Positions 2,316-26,078 of a stretch of DNA of 26,078 nt are shown one piece after another. The position numbers and the translations under genes were made by a program. The notes beneath the pieces were generated by a model. The model did not search any database and was not told the origin of the DNA. It was given only the letters and a program-made list of their open reading frames with translations. The stretch comes from a virus (taxonomy: Duplodnaviria; Caudoviricetes). How positions within the stretch are numbered: position 1 is the first letter of the stretch; each line of letters starts with the position of its first letter. The stretch is taken from positions 1-26,078 of IMG/VR virus record IMGVR_UViG_3300042314_000240; one strand, 5' to 3'.

Positions 2316-2344
2316 TACAACAAAAACAATCAAAAACGGTTTAT
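2316..2344 (+). promoter_or_regulatory. Putative late promoter, copy 1
   Basis: TACAACAAAAA-N12-GTTTAT, 5 nt before ATG 2350; the same motif occurs at 12214 and 15651. Confidence 0.65.
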
Positions 2345-2349
2345 AGGTT

Positions 2350-3024
2350 ATGAAATTGGAAATTAATGTGCCGACCAAATTGAGCGAAATCAATTTAGGT
2401 CAATATCAAAGATTTTTAGAGATTAAAGACGAAGGTGACGGAGCGGATTTTGTGAATCATAAGTTGATTCAGATATTTTGTGGGGCCGATTTGGCGATGG
2501 TTTCAAAAATGAGGCAACGTGACATTATTGAAATAGTTAACGATGTTAATAAATTGTTTAAGTCACATCCGTCCCTTATTAATGAATTCGAATTGAATGG
2601 CAAGAAGTTTGGATTTATTCCAAATTTGGACAATATGAGCGCGGGGGAATACATGGATTTAGACCGTTATATTGTTGAACCGCAATTATTACATCGGGCA
2701 ATGTCCGTTTTGTATCGGCCAATTGTTAGAAAATATGGGGACCTATATCAAATTGAAGAATATGATGGGACCGACAAGTGGTGTGAGGCGATGAAAGAAA
2801 TGCCGGTTGACGTAGCGATTTCCGCGATGGTTTTTTTTTATCATTTAGGGAACGAGTTATTGAAAAGTACGACGGTTTATTTGGCGGAGGCAATACGGGG
2901 GAATTCGATTCAAACGCGCAATTCGGCAGACAATGGGGATGGTATCAGTCAATTTACGCGCTTGCAAAAGGAGACATATTACGATTTGATGACGTTACCA
3001 AATTACCAATTAATAAATGCTTGA
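2350..3024 (+). CDS. Putative tail assembly chaperone (0-frame product)
   Basis: 224-aa ORF containing GTT TTT TTT at 2830-2838, followed by an open -1 frame (lambda gpG/gpGT-like pattern). Confidence 0.55.
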   Translation: MKLEINVPTKLSEINLGQYQRFLEIKDEGDGADFVNHKLIQIFCGADLAMVSKMRQRDIIEIVNDVNKLFKSHPSLINEFELNGKKFGFIPNLDNMSAGEYMDLDRYIVEPQLLHRAMSVLYRPIVRKYGDLYQIEEYDGTDKWCEAMKEMPVDVAISAMVFFYHLGNELLKSTTVYLAEAIRGNSIQTRNSADNGDGISQFTRLQKETYYDLMTLPNYQLINA

Positions 3025-7995: not shown

Positions 7996-10299
7996 ATGCC
8001 ATATTTATCATTAGCGGACGCAAGGTCAAAAGTCACGAATCCCCTTATCGACAACGATTCGGTGATTCTTTATGGAGCAAATTCATCGTTAGACACATCG
8101 AATACTTTTTACACTAATTCGGCAAAAACGGTTTTGGCACCGGCCGATAATTACGTTGTCGCAACTAATTACAAAACTTATTACATTACGATTGGGTCAA
8201 ATGGGAAAATGACCGGCCCGCCGACTGAATTGATGCAAGGGACCGACACATCATGGGTCGAGGACCGTTTGAAAGATGGCGACACGAATCTTGTGTCGAA
8301 TCAATTAGGAATTGGGGGAACGTCTTTGTCATTAGATTCTAATTTATTATTGACTGACGCGGTTTGGGCATCAAGACCATACAACGGGCCAAAGGCTTGG
8401 ATTATTGACACGGGTGAAATATCAGGGTCGGCAATTACAAACATTGATGTTTCGGCGATGAGAGGTTACGACCTTAGATTAATTACGGGTGAATATGTAA
8501 ATGGAAAATTTGTCGCAGGCGATGCGGGTGTAAATACAACGTCGGCAATTATACATTTAGCACCGGACCCAAATCGCGTTGATGTCGCAGGAAATAAAAG
8601 GTATTTTTTCCGTCCCGATTATTGGATTCCATCACGTACATTTAATGCGCCATCTTATTTCCGCAGAATGCCGAATATTGAACCAATAATTGATGCGGGA
8701 GGCAATGAAAAAACTTGGGTAGATATGGCGACCCCATTGATGGACGTTGTTGAAAGGGGTTCACATAGTCCGAGAACCATGAAGCGAATGAATAAGGGTG
8801 TGACAGAATCGCAATCTATTGGAACTCAATGGAATTATACGCAAGTGATTCCAAGAGAAAAAAAATTACATTTTGACGGAGACGGAGCGTTTAGGAATTC
8901 AGTTTCTACGGCATGGGGTGTAAATTTTTTCGATGTTGATATGTCTAGTTTTTGGCAACATCGCACCGTTGCATTGTTAATTGCGCACGACGTTCCGGAA
9001 TCACAAAGGTCAACATGGCAATACAACGGTGGAGGTTACACATATTCGTATTATGAGGCTAACCCGTACGAATGGACGACGGCATGGGGTTCCGGTTCGC
9101 AATACACCGACAAAGGTTTAGCGTCTCAATTTCTTGGATATTTTGTTGAAAATCAACCATTTAATGCAATACATTTTGAATATGATTTTGAACATTTATC
9201 ATACGCATTATTCCGTGAAGACGCGGCAATTGCTTGGACAAAATGTTTTAATTCAGCACTAACGGTTGCGACAAATTTAAAAAATGATAATACACCTTTA
9301 TACATGAATTGGGTCGTTCCCAAATTTTCAAATTACGGAAACGGAATATATCAATCACGATATGTTGGCGCGCCGGGATTTGGATGGGAAAGCATGGAAG
9401 CGGGGAATAGCATAACCGGAACCGGCTTATATTCCGATTATCACGATTATTATATTAACGGAACCAAAACTTATCAACAATGTGGGCTTTATTATCCTTG
9501 GTTTAAGGGGGCGATTCAACATTACAAATATATGTATGTAACGAATTACCAATTTAAAATGAAAGACCAATTTCAGGTTTATTCAATAGTTCACAATACC
9601 GACATTACGCGAAAAATGTTGTTTCAAATTTTAGGCGCAACGCATGATAAGCGTGTATTGCCATACATTTGGAATAAGCAGGAGCCAATTTTAGGGTCCG
9701 ATTTTGGTATGCAACGCAAGACCGTAAGATTAAACGGACAATTAAAATTTGGAGACCGTAACCGTTTGGAAGTATGCCCGTCTCAAATGTATAATTTTGC
9801 CGTTTGGGGAATGTGTTATTGTGACGGATTGTTTGCGTGGTTTCAATCTACAATTGGCGAAGAAGTTACCGATTGCAGATATGACCAAGACGTTAACGGA
9901 ATGGACGACGATTTCGCTGACGCCAAATGGGGCGACACAACGGGTGTCGGAAAAATGACACTTGATTGGCCTTATGTTGGATATTTTCACGCAAAGCAGA
10001 ATCAAGATATTTTAAGCGCAAACACATCGTGGTTGGTTCCAAATCTTTCATTAGGTAGTGGTTCATGGACATCGGGGACCGCAGATTATCCGGTGAGTTT
10101 ATACAACCAACAACGACCAATTGCGCGATACAAATTAAACGCGGCAGGGACCGAGGCATTAGTATTGATTTACAACGGATTTTCAAACGGGTACACAAAG
10201 AATACCTACACATTGAGATTGCCGGCGAAAAACAATTACGAATTTAGCGTTGACACATGGGGTAATTACACAACGGTTTTAAGACTTTCAAATTTATAA
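7996..10299 (+). CDS. Large aromatic-rich virion-associated protein (possible receptor-binding or glycan-active protein)
   Basis: About 767 aa from ATG 7996, W/Y/G-rich, lying between the hub and the tape measure; no family motif recognised. Confidence 0.4.
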   Translation: MPYLSLADARSKVTNPLIDNDSVILYGANSSLDTSNTFYTNSAKTVLAPADNYVVATNYKTYYITIGSNGKMTGPPTELMQGTDTSWVEDRLKDGDTNLVSNQLGIGGTSLSLDSNLLLTDAVWASRPYNGPKAWIIDTGEISGSAITNIDVSAMRGYDLRLITGEYVNGKFVAGDAGVNTTSAIIHLAPDPNRVDVAGNKRYFFRPDYWIPSRTFNAPSYFRRMPNIEPIIDAGGNEKTWVDMATPLMDVVERGSHSPRTMKRMNKGVTESQSIGTQWNYTQVIPREKKLHFDGDGAFRNSVSTAWGVNFFDVDMSSFWQHRTVALLIAHDVPESQRSTWQYNGGGYTYSYYEANPYEWTTAWGSGSQYTDKGLASQFLGYFVENQPFNAIHFEYDFEHLSYALFREDAAIAWTKCFNSALTVATNLKNDNTPLYMNWVVPKFSNYGNGIYQSRYVGAPGFGWESMEAGNSITGTGLYSDYHDYYINGTKTYQQCGLYYPWFKGAIQHYKYMYVTNYQFKMKDQFQVYSIVHNTDITRKMLFQILGATHDKRVLPYIWNKQEPILGSDFGMQRKTVRLNGQLKFGDRNRLEVCPSQMYNFAVWGMCYCDGLFAWFQSTIGEEVTDCRYDQDVNGMDDDFADAKWGDTTGVGKMTLDWPYVGYFHAKQNQDILSANTSWLVPNLSLGSGSWTSGTADYPVSLYNQQRPIARYKLNAAGTEALVLIYNGFSNGYTKNTYTLRLPAKNNYEFSVDTWGNYTTVLRLSNL

Positions 10300-12213: not shown

Positions 12214-12241
12214 TACAACAAAAAACAAAAATAACGTTTAT
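12214..12241 (+). promoter_or_regulatory. Putative late promoter, copy 2
   Basis: TACAACAAAAA-N11-GTTTAT, 5 nt before ATG 12247. Confidence 0.65.
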
Positions 12242-12246
12242 AGGAT

Positions 12247-12828
12247 ATGAGAATTGTTGAATTAGTATTGGACAACGAAAACGACGGAATCGAGGCGATT
12301 AGTCTTGTGGACCGTCCGGCCATTGAAAGCAATTTTATTGCATTGGCAAAAGAAGTCGAAATTAAATTTTCAGAGGTTGACGGAAAGCGCGGAATCCTTA
12401 TGGGTCCGGCATTAATTCCCAACAAAAACATTTACCGTAAATTTGGAAAGGACGAGTTTTACGTTTATTTCTCAAAAGAAACGGTCCGTAAGGCATCCGA
12501 ATTGTACTTGATGAACGGGAACCAAGGGAACGCAACGTTGCAACACAAGAACAAAATTGACGGCATCACATTGGTTGAATCTTGGATTATTGACGACCCT
12601 AAAATGGACAAGTCGGTGAAGTACGGATTTAGCGAAAACGAAGGAACATGGATGGTTTCTTTGAAGGTTGACAATGACGACATAAAATCAAAAATCATTT
12701 CGGGCGAAGTTAAAGGGTTTTCAATTGAAGGTTATTTTACTGACAAAATTGAAATGGGTTTGCAGGACATTAGCGACGAACAATTAGTTGAAGAAATTTT
12801 AAACATTTTAGAAGATGGCGAAGAATAA
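12247..12828 (+). CDS. Prohead protease (XkdF-like)
   Basis: LMGPALIP, TLQH, LVESW, GTWMVSLKV and VKGFSIEG motifs; upstream of the capsid gene. Confidence 0.75.
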   Translation: MRIVELVLDNENDGIEAISLVDRPAIESNFIALAKEVEIKFSEVDGKRGILMGPALIPNKNIYRKFGKDEFYVYFSKETVRKASELYLMNGNQGNATLQHKNKIDGITLVESWIIDDPKMDKSVKYGFSENEGTWMVSLKVDNDDIKSKIISGEVKGFSIEGYFTDKIEMGLQDISDEQLVEEILNILEDGEE

Positions 12829-23412: not shown

Positions 23413-23671
23413 GTCAATAACTTTGTCGGCAGGTTTAGCGGACACAATTATTCACGACTTAAAGGAACGTAAATTACTAACGCGAAAAGATAGTATTCAA
23501 AAGGCATACATTTCGATTTTAGAGAGAGAAAGCGCATCAAGACAAACGAATGTATATGAATTGCAAAAATCATTGCTTATAAGCGAAAAGAAACGGTCAC
23601 GAAATGGGTGGCAAAGAAATTCATTATTAATAATTACCGGATTTCTTACATATTTAATCATAACAAAATGA
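23306..23671 (+). CDS. Exported coiled-coil protein with a C-terminal TM helix (spanin-like, putative)
   Basis: Signal peptide MKRKLFLSIPLLLAFLLLTQIVRA-Q from ATG 23306; C-terminal SLLIITGFLTYLII. Confidence 0.45.
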   Translation: MKRKLFLSIPLLLAFLLLTQIVRAQNSLKITPKTGRSITLSAGLADTIIHDLKERKLLTRKDSIQKAYISILERESASRQTNVYELQKSLLISEKKRSRNGWQRNSLLIITGFLTYLIITK

Positions 23672-24807
23672 AATCATATCGGGAATTAATAGACGAAACG
23701 ATTGAATTAAAAAGGTCCAAGGGGTTAGGGTCCAACGAAGCGGCCCGAATTATTTGTGAAATTTACAAATATGACAATTACAAAGCCATCGCTAAAAACC
23801 TAGGACGGTACGAATCTAAAGACCGGTTAAAATCGGACCATGCCGGCCTTGCAAAACATTGCGACGAACGCGGAATTGAAATAAGTGACGTCAAATTGTA
23901 TTGGGATAAAACAAAGGAATATTCCGTCGCGGTTAAAATGGACCAATCGGTCAAAACTTACGAAGACTTACGGGATGAAATCATTGACGAAATGCAAAAG
24001 TATTCGCCGATTTATCCGGAAATCGAGCGAAAAAATATTGAAGACGGACATCTTTTAGTCGTTGACCCCGCCGACATCCATATTGGAAAACTTTCAACAG
24101 ATTATGAGACCGGTGACGAATATAATTCAAACATCGCATTTAAACGAGTATTGGAAGGGGTGAAAGGAATCATTCAGAAATCACAAGGATTTAATATTGA
24201 CCGAATTTTATTTATAGCAGGCAATGACATATTACACATTGATAGCCCCAAACGAACTACCACGAGCGGCACACCACAAGACACCGATGGAATGTTTTAT
24301 GAAAATTTCCTATGTGCCAAAAAACTTTATGTTGAAGTAATTGAAATTTTGTTGCAGGTGGCAAACGTTCACTTTGTATTCAATCCATCAAATCACGATT
24401 ATCAATCCGGATTCTATTTGGCGGATGTGATTCAATCGTGGTTCCGCAATTCAAAGAATATCACTTTTGATTGTTCGATTTCACATCGTAAATATTTTCA
24501 ATACGGTAAAAACTTAATCGGGTCTACACATGGAGACGGGGCCAAACCTAGCGACTTGCCATTACTTATGGCCGTTGAGGCAAAAGAAATGTGGGCAAGG
24601 ACACAACACAAATACGTTTATTCACACCATTTACACCACAAGGTTTCAAAGGATTTCATAGGGGTCACGGTTGAGTCATTGAGGTCACCAAGCGGTGCAG
24701 ATTCATGGCATCACCGGAACGGATACCAACACGCAACAAAGGCGATTGAGGGGTTCATTCATCACAAAGACCATGGACAAGTTGCGCGCTTGTCTCACAT
24801 TTTTTAA
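23668..24807 (+). CDS. Calcineurin-like metallophosphoesterase
   Basis: DIH, GND, NHD, HGD and HLHH motifs; ATG 23668 overlaps the upstream stop (ATGA). Confidence 0.8.
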   Translation: MKSYRELIDETIELKRSKGLGSNEAARIICEIYKYDNYKAIAKNLGRYESKDRLKSDHAGLAKHCDERGIEISDVKLYWDKTKEYSVAVKMDQSVKTYEDLRDEIIDEMQKYSPIYPEIERKNIEDGHLLVVDPADIHIGKLSTDYETGDEYNSNIAFKRVLEGVKGIIQKSQGFNIDRILFIAGNDILHIDSPKRTTTSGTPQDTDGMFYENFLCAKKLYVEVIEILLQVANVHFVFNPSNHDYQSGFYLADVIQSWFRNSKNITFDCSISHRKYFQYGKNLIGSTHGDGAKPSDLPLLMAVEAKEMWARTQHKYVYSHHLHHKVSKDFIGVTVESLRSPSGADSWHHRNGYQHATKAIEGFIHHKDHGQVARLSHIF

Positions 24808-24848
24808 GTTTGTAAAGTTTGATTTCATAATGATAGGTTTAGGGTTGG

Positions 24849-24883
24849 AAAGGGGTTTCGTTTTACGATTCCCCTTTTTTTTT
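24849..24883 (+). terminator. Rho-independent terminator ending the late region
   Basis: AAAGGGGttTCGT-ttt-ACGAttCCCC followed by T9. Confidence 0.8.
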
Positions 24884-24886
24884 AGA

Positions 24887-24928
24887 CCAATAGGTTAAAA
24901 ATAGGTAACCTATTAAAAACCTATTTGG
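24887..24928. repeat. Symmetric array of four AATAGGT heptamers
   Basis: AATAGGT at 24889 and 24900; ACCTATT at 24908 and 24919. Confidence 0.8.
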
Positions 24929-24960: not shown

Positions 24961-25029
24961 AAAAAACTTTTTTTATTCATTTCTTTTTGCAATATTTGCT
25001 CAACGAAAAACAAAAACACTATCAAAATG
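24961..25029 (+). promoter_or_regulatory. Putative host-RNAP early promoter and leader, copy 1
   Basis: AAAAAACTTTTTTTATTC...AATATTTG (one mismatch to Bacteroidota TAnnTTTG)...AAACACTATCAAAATG. Confidence 0.45.
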
Positions 25030-25395
25030 AAGACTTTTAATCAAATTTCAGCAGAACAAGCAATTAATCACGCGCGCAACGAGTACAATCCGTATGAGTG
25101 GAAAAAGCAAATCATGCTTATGCAAAAATGTTTTAATTCAAATTTTTACGAATGCGATGGCAAGGTTTATTCAATCTATGTAAATAAGGCTGACGGCTTA
25201 AAATACATGAACGAAGTTGAATATTGCAATTCAATTACTAATGCAGGATTGATTGCTTTCTACTTTGACGGTGTTGAAATTATTCAAATCGATAAAGTTT
25301 ATTTTCCTAAAACAAAAGAAGGGTATAAGGCAATGCAACAATTTGCAGAAGGAGACAACGAATTAGTTTTTGCATCCGTTTATTTTCAATTATAA
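25027..25395 (+). CDS. Hypothetical early protein (122 aa)
   Basis: ATG 25027 follows the shared CTATCAAA leader. Confidence 0.7.
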   Translation: MKTFNQISAEQAINHARNEYNPYEWKKQIMLMQKCFNSNFYECDGKVYSIYVNKADGLKYMNEVEYCNSITNAGLIAFYFDGVEIIQIDKVYFPKTKEGYKAMQQFAEGDNELVFASVYFQL

Positions 25396-25402
25396 TTCAA
25401 CC

Positions 25403-25431
25403 CCGAGCCAAGGCGGATTCCTTGGCATTTT
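25403..25431 (+). repeat. 29-nt repeat with terminator-like hairpin, copy 1
   Basis: CCGA-GCCAAGG-cggatt-CCTTGGC-ATTTT, identical to 25933-25961. Confidence 0.85.
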
Positions 25432-25447
25432 TTAAACACCTATCAAA

Positions 25448-25708
25448 ATGAAATATCCTTTATCAATGTTGATGACCATTAGCAGGTATGACAAAGAAAT
25501 GTATCAACTTATTTTGTCTTATTATATCAAAGAACAAAAGAAATTTGGAAGAAGTCTTAATCAAATAAAGAAAGACTTTGACCGATTAACTTGCTCAAAA
25601 ACTTGTATTATTTCATCTTGCATTACTATTGACAATACAAAAGAGGGAAGAGCATATTGGAAAAGCATGGAGAAAAAATATGAATCAAGATATACTAATT
25701 TATTTTAA
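25448..25708 (+). CDS. Hypothetical early protein (86 aa)
   Basis: Preceded by AAACACCTATCAAA; C-terminal TKEGRAYW motif. Confidence 0.7.
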   Translation: MKYPLSMLMTISRYDKEMYQLILSYYIKEQKKFGRSLNQIKKDFDRLTCSKTCIISSCITIDNTKEGRAYWKSMEKKYESRYTNLF

Positions 25709-25726
25709 TCTTAAATACCTATCAAA

Positions 25727-25924
25727 ATGGAAAATTTAACTAAATTAAATCAATCACAAGAAATTTTAAAAATGTCAAATATTCTTATTGAATTGATGTC
25801 TGTATCAGAAAATAATGACAATCACATATCGTATGCCGAAAATTTGATAATAGAAAAAATTGAATCAATTATCAATGAAATGAAAAAAGAAAGAATTGTT
25901 TACAATTCATTGATGGGCTTATAA
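25727..25924 (+). CDS. Hypothetical early protein (65 aa)
   Basis: Preceded by AAATACCTATCAAA. Confidence 0.65.
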   Translation: MENLTKLNQSQEILKMSNILIELMSVSENNDNHISYAENLIIEKIESIINEMKKERIVYNSLMGL

Positions 25925-25932
25925 TTTAACAA

Positions 25933-25961
25933 CCGAGCCAAGGCGGATTCCTTGGCATTTT
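25933..25961 (+). repeat. 29-nt repeat with terminator-like hairpin, copy 2
   Basis: Identical to 25403-25431. Confidence 0.85.
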
Positions 25962-26031
25962 AAAAAACTTTTTTTATTCCAAATCTTTTTATTACATTTA
26001 CAAAATCAAACACATAAACACTATCAAAATG
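25962..26031 (+). promoter_or_regulatory. Putative early promoter and leader, copy 2
   Basis: AAAAAACTTTTTTTATTC...TACATTTA...AAACACTATCAAAATG; parallels 24961-25029. Confidence 0.45.
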
Positions 26032-26078
26032 AAAAACATTATCACACTTTTAATCGGGGATTTTAATCAATCAGACGT
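26029..26078 (+). CDS. Partial hypothetical early protein (runs off the window)
   Basis: MKNIITLLIGDFNQSD after the shared leader. Confidence 0.55.
   Translation, partial: MKNIITLLIGDFNQSD

Follow-up and report, generated by a model that had tools for sequence, protein, structure and literature searches.

A candidate small-RNA gene of the FopS/Rfp18 kind in a tailed phage, predicted to pair with the phage's own early-gene starts

Why should a short segment between the last late gene and the early region of a tailed phage carry, on its opposite strand, a copy of the start of the early genes? The window analysed here is the whole stretch of DNA, a complete 26-kb contig of 26,078 bases, in which the genes run in the order sigma-factor-like protein, terminase, tail, capsid, portal, holin/endolysin, the gene at 23668-24807, the element under study and then the beginning of the early region. 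Both the TAnnTTTG boxes and the A-rich leaders point to a Bacteroidota host, and the closest cultured match of the capsid is Nonlabens phage P12024 (30%). Two late genes are preceded by the motif TACAAC-N16/17-CG(G/T)TTATAGG (window positions 2317-2350 and 12215-12247), a candidate promoter for the sigma-factor-like protein encoded at 11-478. The gene directly ahead of the element is the following.

23668..24807, plus strand: final gene of the late block, exonuclease/phosphoesterase-like, PHROG 704 'DNA repair exonuclease'.

The name 'phosphoesterase' comes from the earlier note on this DNA, and one GenBank relative is annotated likewise. A Pfam search with this gene returned no match, and its relatives occur in Flavobacterium phages (59%) but also in a Synechococcus phage (56%).

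The earlier note had proposed that the segment is antisense to a translation-start region common to the early genes, and the mirror match that it described is indeed there. The minus strand of 24822-24838 reads ACCTATCA-TT-ATGAAAT, while 25438-25454, at the start of the gene at 25448, reads ACCTATCA-AA-ATGAAAT, the two being identical at 15 of 17 positions with the ATG in register. The motif said to mark all four early starts, CTATCAAAATG, is found four times in the 26,078 bases, only at 25027, 25448, 25727 and 26029. The pattern CTATCANNATG (CTATCAnnATG) has five matches in the window where 0.10 would be expected: one at each of the four early starts and a minus-strand one in the element. None of 100 shuffles reaches five. 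The looser 17-mer, with three mismatches allowed, also gives five matches, against 1.53 expected and with one of 100 shuffles reaching five; this search, with one match at the late gene 23668 and none at 25027, is weaker than that with CTATCAnnATG.

With regard to its anatomy, the element comprises the following parts.

24805..24812, plus strand: Bacteroidota primary-sigma -7 box TAAGTTTG, a sequence match, with a predicted start site at 24817-24819.
24817..24883, plus strand: predicted small RNA of ~65-67 nt, from model R1 and the Rfam FopS alignment, its length resting on the predicted start site.
24817..24846, plus strand: single-stranded seed, consisting of UUUCAU (anti-AUGAAA) and GAUAGGUUUAG (anti-leader), from the predicted fold and alignment A1.
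24847..24883, plus strand: intrinsic terminator hairpin and U-run, from fold and covariation.

The TAA stop of the upstream gene forms the first three letters of TAAGTTTG. The consensus of this box is placed at positions -12 to -5 in two studies (PMC7366714, PMC9723704); transcription would start at 24817 by that placement (PMC9723704), and at 24819 by the spacing in Rfp18, a small RNA discussed below. Our own model R1 matches 24816-24881 with 61.8 bits, near-identical relatives being part of its training set. Within the seed, which is kept in alignment A1, the unpaired probability is mostly 0.5-1.0, and the consensus fold of the relatives predicts no structure. The terminator hairpin folds at 24847-24879 and is followed by a T9 run at 24875-24883 (U9 in the RNA); a simple terminator scanner run over the window did not list this hairpin. 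Across 46 relatives, compensatory changes are seen at 9 of its 14 consensus pairs. With its own -7 box, about 30 largely unpaired bases and a terminator, the unit thus looks like a complete small-RNA gene. Four short contigs from the one small-share run consulted for RNA evidence all lie outside the element, which counts neither for nor against a transcript. Right after the terminator, at 24889-24925, lies a palindromic arrangement of two AATAGGT and two ACCTATT copies, with an ATAGGT core in common with the seed; it is present in only some relatives, the rest carrying other short inserts there.

This anatomy lends no support to the suggestion that the segment is merely a late 3' UTR acting late in infection, since the element brings a host-type promoter box of its own, like those of the early genes. 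Given an early-type box before the element and a different candidate motif before two late genes, expression may start early, and a 'late shut-off' is not established. The earlier note had also considered that the mirror match might be the start of a leftward gene.

24703..24828, minus strand: 41-aa open reading frame, judged incidental, short in relatives.

This frame does exist in the window and in the relative L002, with an ATG-AAA start and a typical leader, yet it is not conserved in relatives, where its median length is 11.5 codons: it has 10 codons or fewer in 27 of 58 and reaches 30 in 7 of 58, and it counts 11 codons in a 99%-identical relative. It has no PHROG match, and a leftward promoter box is seen in 3 of 59 relatives, against 53 of 59 with a rightward -7 box of the early kind before the first early gene. 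A real leftward gene is therefore hardly credible.

How widely is the element kept? Among 78 related loci chosen by the upstream gene, it follows that gene directly in 17 and comes after an inserted HNH gene in 3 more, while in the remaining 58 that gene is followed immediately by other genes or a short contig end. A pattern scan yielded 106 stretches which, together with the earlier loci, gave 53 distinct elements with a terminator, and the element is retained behind several different upstream genes. In 36 of these 53 elements a strict promoter box lies no more than 40 nt ahead of the seed, against 259 of 9742 background windows (2.7%), the shuffles giving a mean of 3 and a maximum of 9; it is absent in 17 of the 53. 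All five complete relatives have one strong copy at one position, and two copies are present in L273 and L274. The reach of the family is limited: among 75 loci selected through a second SSB-like family, from more distant phages, model R1 matches one, eight candidates came out of a de novo scan of a further 191 loci (six of the same family and two noise), and R1 matches neither the cultured Flavobacterium phage lillamy9-1 nor Nonlabens phage P12024S. As variations around this theme, a tandem doubled TTTTCAT seed occurs inside the element in L118, L132, L090 and L144. Furthermore, P12024S (L466, ~10170-10245) carries after its holin a unit of box, U-rich stretch and terminator, whose 5' part mirrors CAATTAAAAAC ahead of gene 16313; the unit is of low complexity and not an R1 match, and the phage is a cultured one.

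The central claim of the earlier note, pairing over the start codons of several early genes, was addressed with ViennaRNA duplex and cofold energies, gene starts being taken by a simple ATG rule by which some may be wrong. The four predicted targets are as follows.

25001..25035, plus strand: start of early gene 25027 (122 aa, no family), -15.7 kcal/mol, rank 4 of 29.
25430..25456, plus strand: start of early gene 25448 (86 aa, no family), -15.8 kcal/mol, rank 3 of 29.
25705..25735, plus strand: start of early gene 25727 (65 aa, no family), -18.2 kcal/mol, rank 1 of 29.
26005..26040, plus strand: start of gene 26029, a 36-43-aa hydrophobic protein cut by the contig end, -17.3 kcal/mol, rank 2 of 29.

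With the full RNA, multi-target pairing is thus predicted as claimed, these four starts taking ranks 1-4 of 29 at -15.7 to -18.2 kcal/mol, followed by the next-best start at -13.8. None of 20 shuffled seeds places the four at ranks 1-4, and the predicted duplexes span the AUG itself. The pairing is AU-rich and modest, and in an unbiased duplex scan of the whole window a coding site at 12591 (-20.0) scores above the best early start (-19.4), so that raw energy alone is insufficient to single out the targets.

Complete relatives give a graded picture. In the 99% relative G006, the first four early genes take ranks 1-4 of 52, with erf on top. The other four complete genomes are looser, enrichment of the first five genes being seen only in G007, and this enrichment is significant in only two of the five genomes. 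When early starts are compared with late ones, they pair better in all five, beating all six seed shuffles in each, and 5 to 8 of the best 8 partners are early genes; the p values are 0.05 and 0.09 in two genomes, and the boundary in G010 is poorly placed. When RNAs were crossed among five genomes whose classes are related, no genome had its own RNA as the best partner.

Two kinds of gene near the element deserve mention in their own right. The 36-43-aa hydrophobic protein (window 26029 onward; L002:8234-8347) is encoded by one of the first early genes throughout the group; it has no match in a Pfam search and is a candidate for exclusion or host takeover. An HNH endonuclease gene lies between promoter box and element in L013, L017 and L018, and an HNH gene start is the top predicted partner in G008.

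A further question is whether the seed changes together with the leaders across lineages, a check that the earlier note had called for and that turned out in its favour. We used 67 elements with enough downstream DNA, from which L026, L050 and L088 were dropped for their different context, the remaining 64 being collapsed to 59 sets. With the common UUUCAU left out, the pairing of an element with the first three leaders of its own phage is stronger than the mean with foreign ones in 51 of the 59 sets, eight showing no preference; the mean pairing is -12.1 for own against -9.7 for foreign leaders, whereas the best of 10,000 permutations gives -10.8. Once coding similarity is removed, pairing still tracks element similarity (partial r 0.40, 0 of 999 permutations). 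Five sequence classes, defined after seeing the data, match their leaders: CATCT in 13/13 sets against 3/46 others, TTCT in 11/11 against 0/48, CTT in 9/9 against 4/50, ACCT in 7/10 against 3/49, and GAT/TATCA in 12/14 against 7/45. The natural seed alleles across the classes are GAUAGG, GGUUUAGAUG, GGUUUAGAAUUG and GGUUUAAG. The CTT class and the two-copy loci come from protein-chosen rather than element-chosen loci, and each copy of the latter matches its own downstream leader. On a weak tree that covers 36 of the 59 sets, the classes for the most part correspond to clades, so that only about four to five independent seed/leader switches are represented.

The dependence on lineage bears on a reading without any pairing role, in which the element would be an ordinary terminator, preceded by a relic or inverted copy of an early leader whose similarity recombination or descent has maintained. 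Such a history would agree with classes that follow lineages, with early cassettes that are repeat-bounded and exchanged in a phage encoding an Erf recombinase, and with the null outcome of a G:U asymmetry test of RNA pairing versus an inverted DNA copy (0.099 vs 0.097). However, the conserved promoter box is oriented to give antisense RNA, the element is kept as one copy at one position in 5/5 complete relatives and behind different upstream genes, and it resembles expressed host small RNAs; we hold a relic to be quite improbable. With regard to the cassettes, an identical 20-nt GC-rich hairpin stands at 25407-25426 and at 25937-25956, between early gene cassettes, and the cassettes vary across three near-identical phages (the window, L002 and L003), which suggests repeat-mediated exchange or processing sites. 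The near identity of the leaders, ascribed by the earlier note to the silencing RNA, may also come from such recombination.

It is with the first leaders that the covariation shows most clearly, and the two copies in L273 each match the gene that comes next. These two observations would suit an action in cis, by which the element in read-through transcripts would fold onto the leader of the first early gene, 100-170 nt further on, and prevent late re-expression of that gene. Against this stand the strong terminator in between, the element's own promoter box and the best partner in a complete near relative, which is the fourth gene, 1.4 kb away; a cis mechanism accordingly appears highly improbable.

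Which known RNAs does the element resemble? FopS (RF04319)/GibS of Bacteroides thetaiotaomicron is like it in layout, length and UUUCAU seed (PMC11697453, PMC7366714). According to the FopS study, this RNA of ~65-70 nt is made from a primary-sigma promoter, has a single-stranded 5' UUUCAU seed over start codons and one terminator hairpin, represses SusC-type transporters, binds RbpB and blocks translation near start codons in vitro, and one copy lies in a Caudovirales phage (PMC11697453). The element has the same predicted fold, a single-stranded 5' stretch and one intrinsic terminator, and at 24805-24812 its TAAGTTTG corresponds, as a sequence match, to the canonical sigma-ABfr promoter. For the R1/R1' seed of FopS, the cmscan alignment gives a partial match over the seed. 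The Rfam FopS model aligns full length at 24819-24884 with 23.2 bits (E 0.08-0.9), short of the gathering cut-off of 56, and gives no match at E<=1 in 18 short loci, 17 of which have the element. FopS further differs in having 12-15 chromosomal paralogues in Bacteroidaceae, according to the same study (PMC11697453), whereas the element is a single phage copy with predicted targets in the phage's own early genes and with a seed that varies by lineage.

The second relative is Rfp18 of Flavobacterium psychrophilum, described as an expressed RNA whose sigma-A start has been mapped and which is predicted to pair around the starts of its targets (PMC9723704). It has the sigma-A promoter, the same seed, a U/G-rich stretch and a terminator like the element (PMC9723704), and its first 16 nt from TTTTCAT equal, by eye, those of the phage elements L063 and L064. 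Rfp18 differs in its length of 97 nt, an extra 5' hairpin, a chromosomal place beside hppD and predicted targets that are protease and adhesin mRNAs rather than phage early genes (PMC9723704); the window has no Rfp18-type 5' hairpin between box and seed and no hppD-DUF3108 position. The phage-built model R1 nevertheless matches 23 of 81 Flavobacteriaceae genomes with 36-44 bits, and 7 of 10 matched loci that were fetched are flanked by hppD and a DUF3108 gene, agreeing with Rfp18 in position and sequence. Over five whole host genomes R1 gave no match at E<=0.001, although two of these genomes contain loci that score 38-39 bits locally, so such genome searches miss weak copies. The host-side look-alikes reach 34.5 bits at most against FopS. 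For six host copies, the early starts of the phage fall at ranks 1-23 and are not singled out, which suggests a tuning of the phage copy to the leaders of the phage itself. The Rfp18 homologues (L495-L504, Flavobacteriaceae) and FopS-like units (L347, L370, L404 and L354, Bacteroidales), none of which reaches an Rfam cut-off, suggest one phylum-wide superfamily of anti-start-codon small RNAs.

Two other types of antisense RNA were set aside. In type I toxin-antitoxin systems, a single small hydrophobic toxin gene has an antisense RNA of long complementarity that serves this gene alone; here the pairing is short, several genes share it, and in G006 it is best with erf. The c4 antisense RNA of P1/P7, which acts in trans on phage translation-start regions and has a variable specificity part (PMC5320573), parallels the predicted action of the element in function only. 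It has three stem-loops with loop seeds, an RNase P cut and a role in lysogeny (PMC5320573), whereas the element has a single hairpin and the window no Rfam C4 match; membership in c4 was rejected. No tyrosine or serine recombinases (PF00589, PF00239) were found in the five complete relatives, which does not decide on a part in lysogeny, as P1 itself is a plasmid prophage. By the tests run, the element is a new variant of the FopS/Rfp18 kind and a member of neither. A literature search, beyond whose reach most subscription papers lay, found no description of this phage element.

The likeness to FopS raises the question of whether the RNA acts mainly on host mRNAs, for instance lowering outer-membrane receptors in superinfection exclusion or host takeover, the match with early leaders being secondary. 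FopS represses SusC-type transporters (PMC11697453), and of 190 starts taken from two surrogate Flavobacteriaceae genomes, 5 reach a pairing energy of -15.7 or lower; the strongest of them (-19.8), among three top matches scanned for families, belongs to a gene for an outer-membrane beta-barrel with a TonB plug domain. Host targets would leave the covariation with the phage's own leaders unexplained, and CTATC-n-ATG is found in none of the 190 leaders of the surrogate hosts. We regard host mRNAs as unlikely to be the main targets, though those of outer-membrane proteins may be among the targets.

The direction of regulation also has to be weighed. Deletion of Rfp18 lowered two target (metalloprotease) mRNAs (PMC9723704), so that repression by the element is not guaranteed. 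An RNA that pairs with the early leaders and stabilises or activates the messages would agree with that result and with a promoter of the early type. The predicted duplexes cover the AUG, though, the geometry by which FopS blocks translation in vitro (PMC11697453), and activation is in our estimate very unlikely.

Taken together, the element is real and conserved, and it is probably a functional phage small-RNA gene. The reading that we favour, with a probability of roughly 0.6, is a gene for a small RNA of the FopS/Rfp18 type, with an open 5' end that by prediction pairs over start codons and leaders of the first early genes and so would lower their translation. Host RNA polymerase would start at ~24817-24819, perhaps with a second, longer form from late read-through that stops at the same terminator. 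In the seed, UUUCAU would cover AUGAAA, common to many Bacteroidota starts, while the variable part (here GAUAGG) would serve as a lineage-specific address. As the RNA builds up, it would cap early output, that is the small proteins, the 36-43-aa hydrophobic protein and the Erf recombinase. The gene would be of common origin with host anti-start small RNAs and re-tuned to phage leaders. A bolder extension, which we put forward tentatively and consider doubtful, is that a captured host RNA of the Rfp18/FopS kind could serve as a protein-free master switch, with an anti-AUGAAA anchor and a co-evolving lineage address; it might time the early-to-late transition, define RNA-based exclusion groups among related, apparently non-integrating phages and perhaps silence host outer-membrane receptors.

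The element is a variation on a known mechanism and rests on prediction. Bacteroidota ribosomes work without Shine-Dalgarno pairing, according to PMC7797042, and the control of early-gene output in Bacteroidota phages has been little studied. FopS/GibS and Rfp18, separate in the cited papers, would be joined as one architecture common to hosts and phages. For the phages themselves, the finding would mean an RNA that addresses a class of their own start regions, and the five classes of natural compensatory alleles offer a ready swap experiment.
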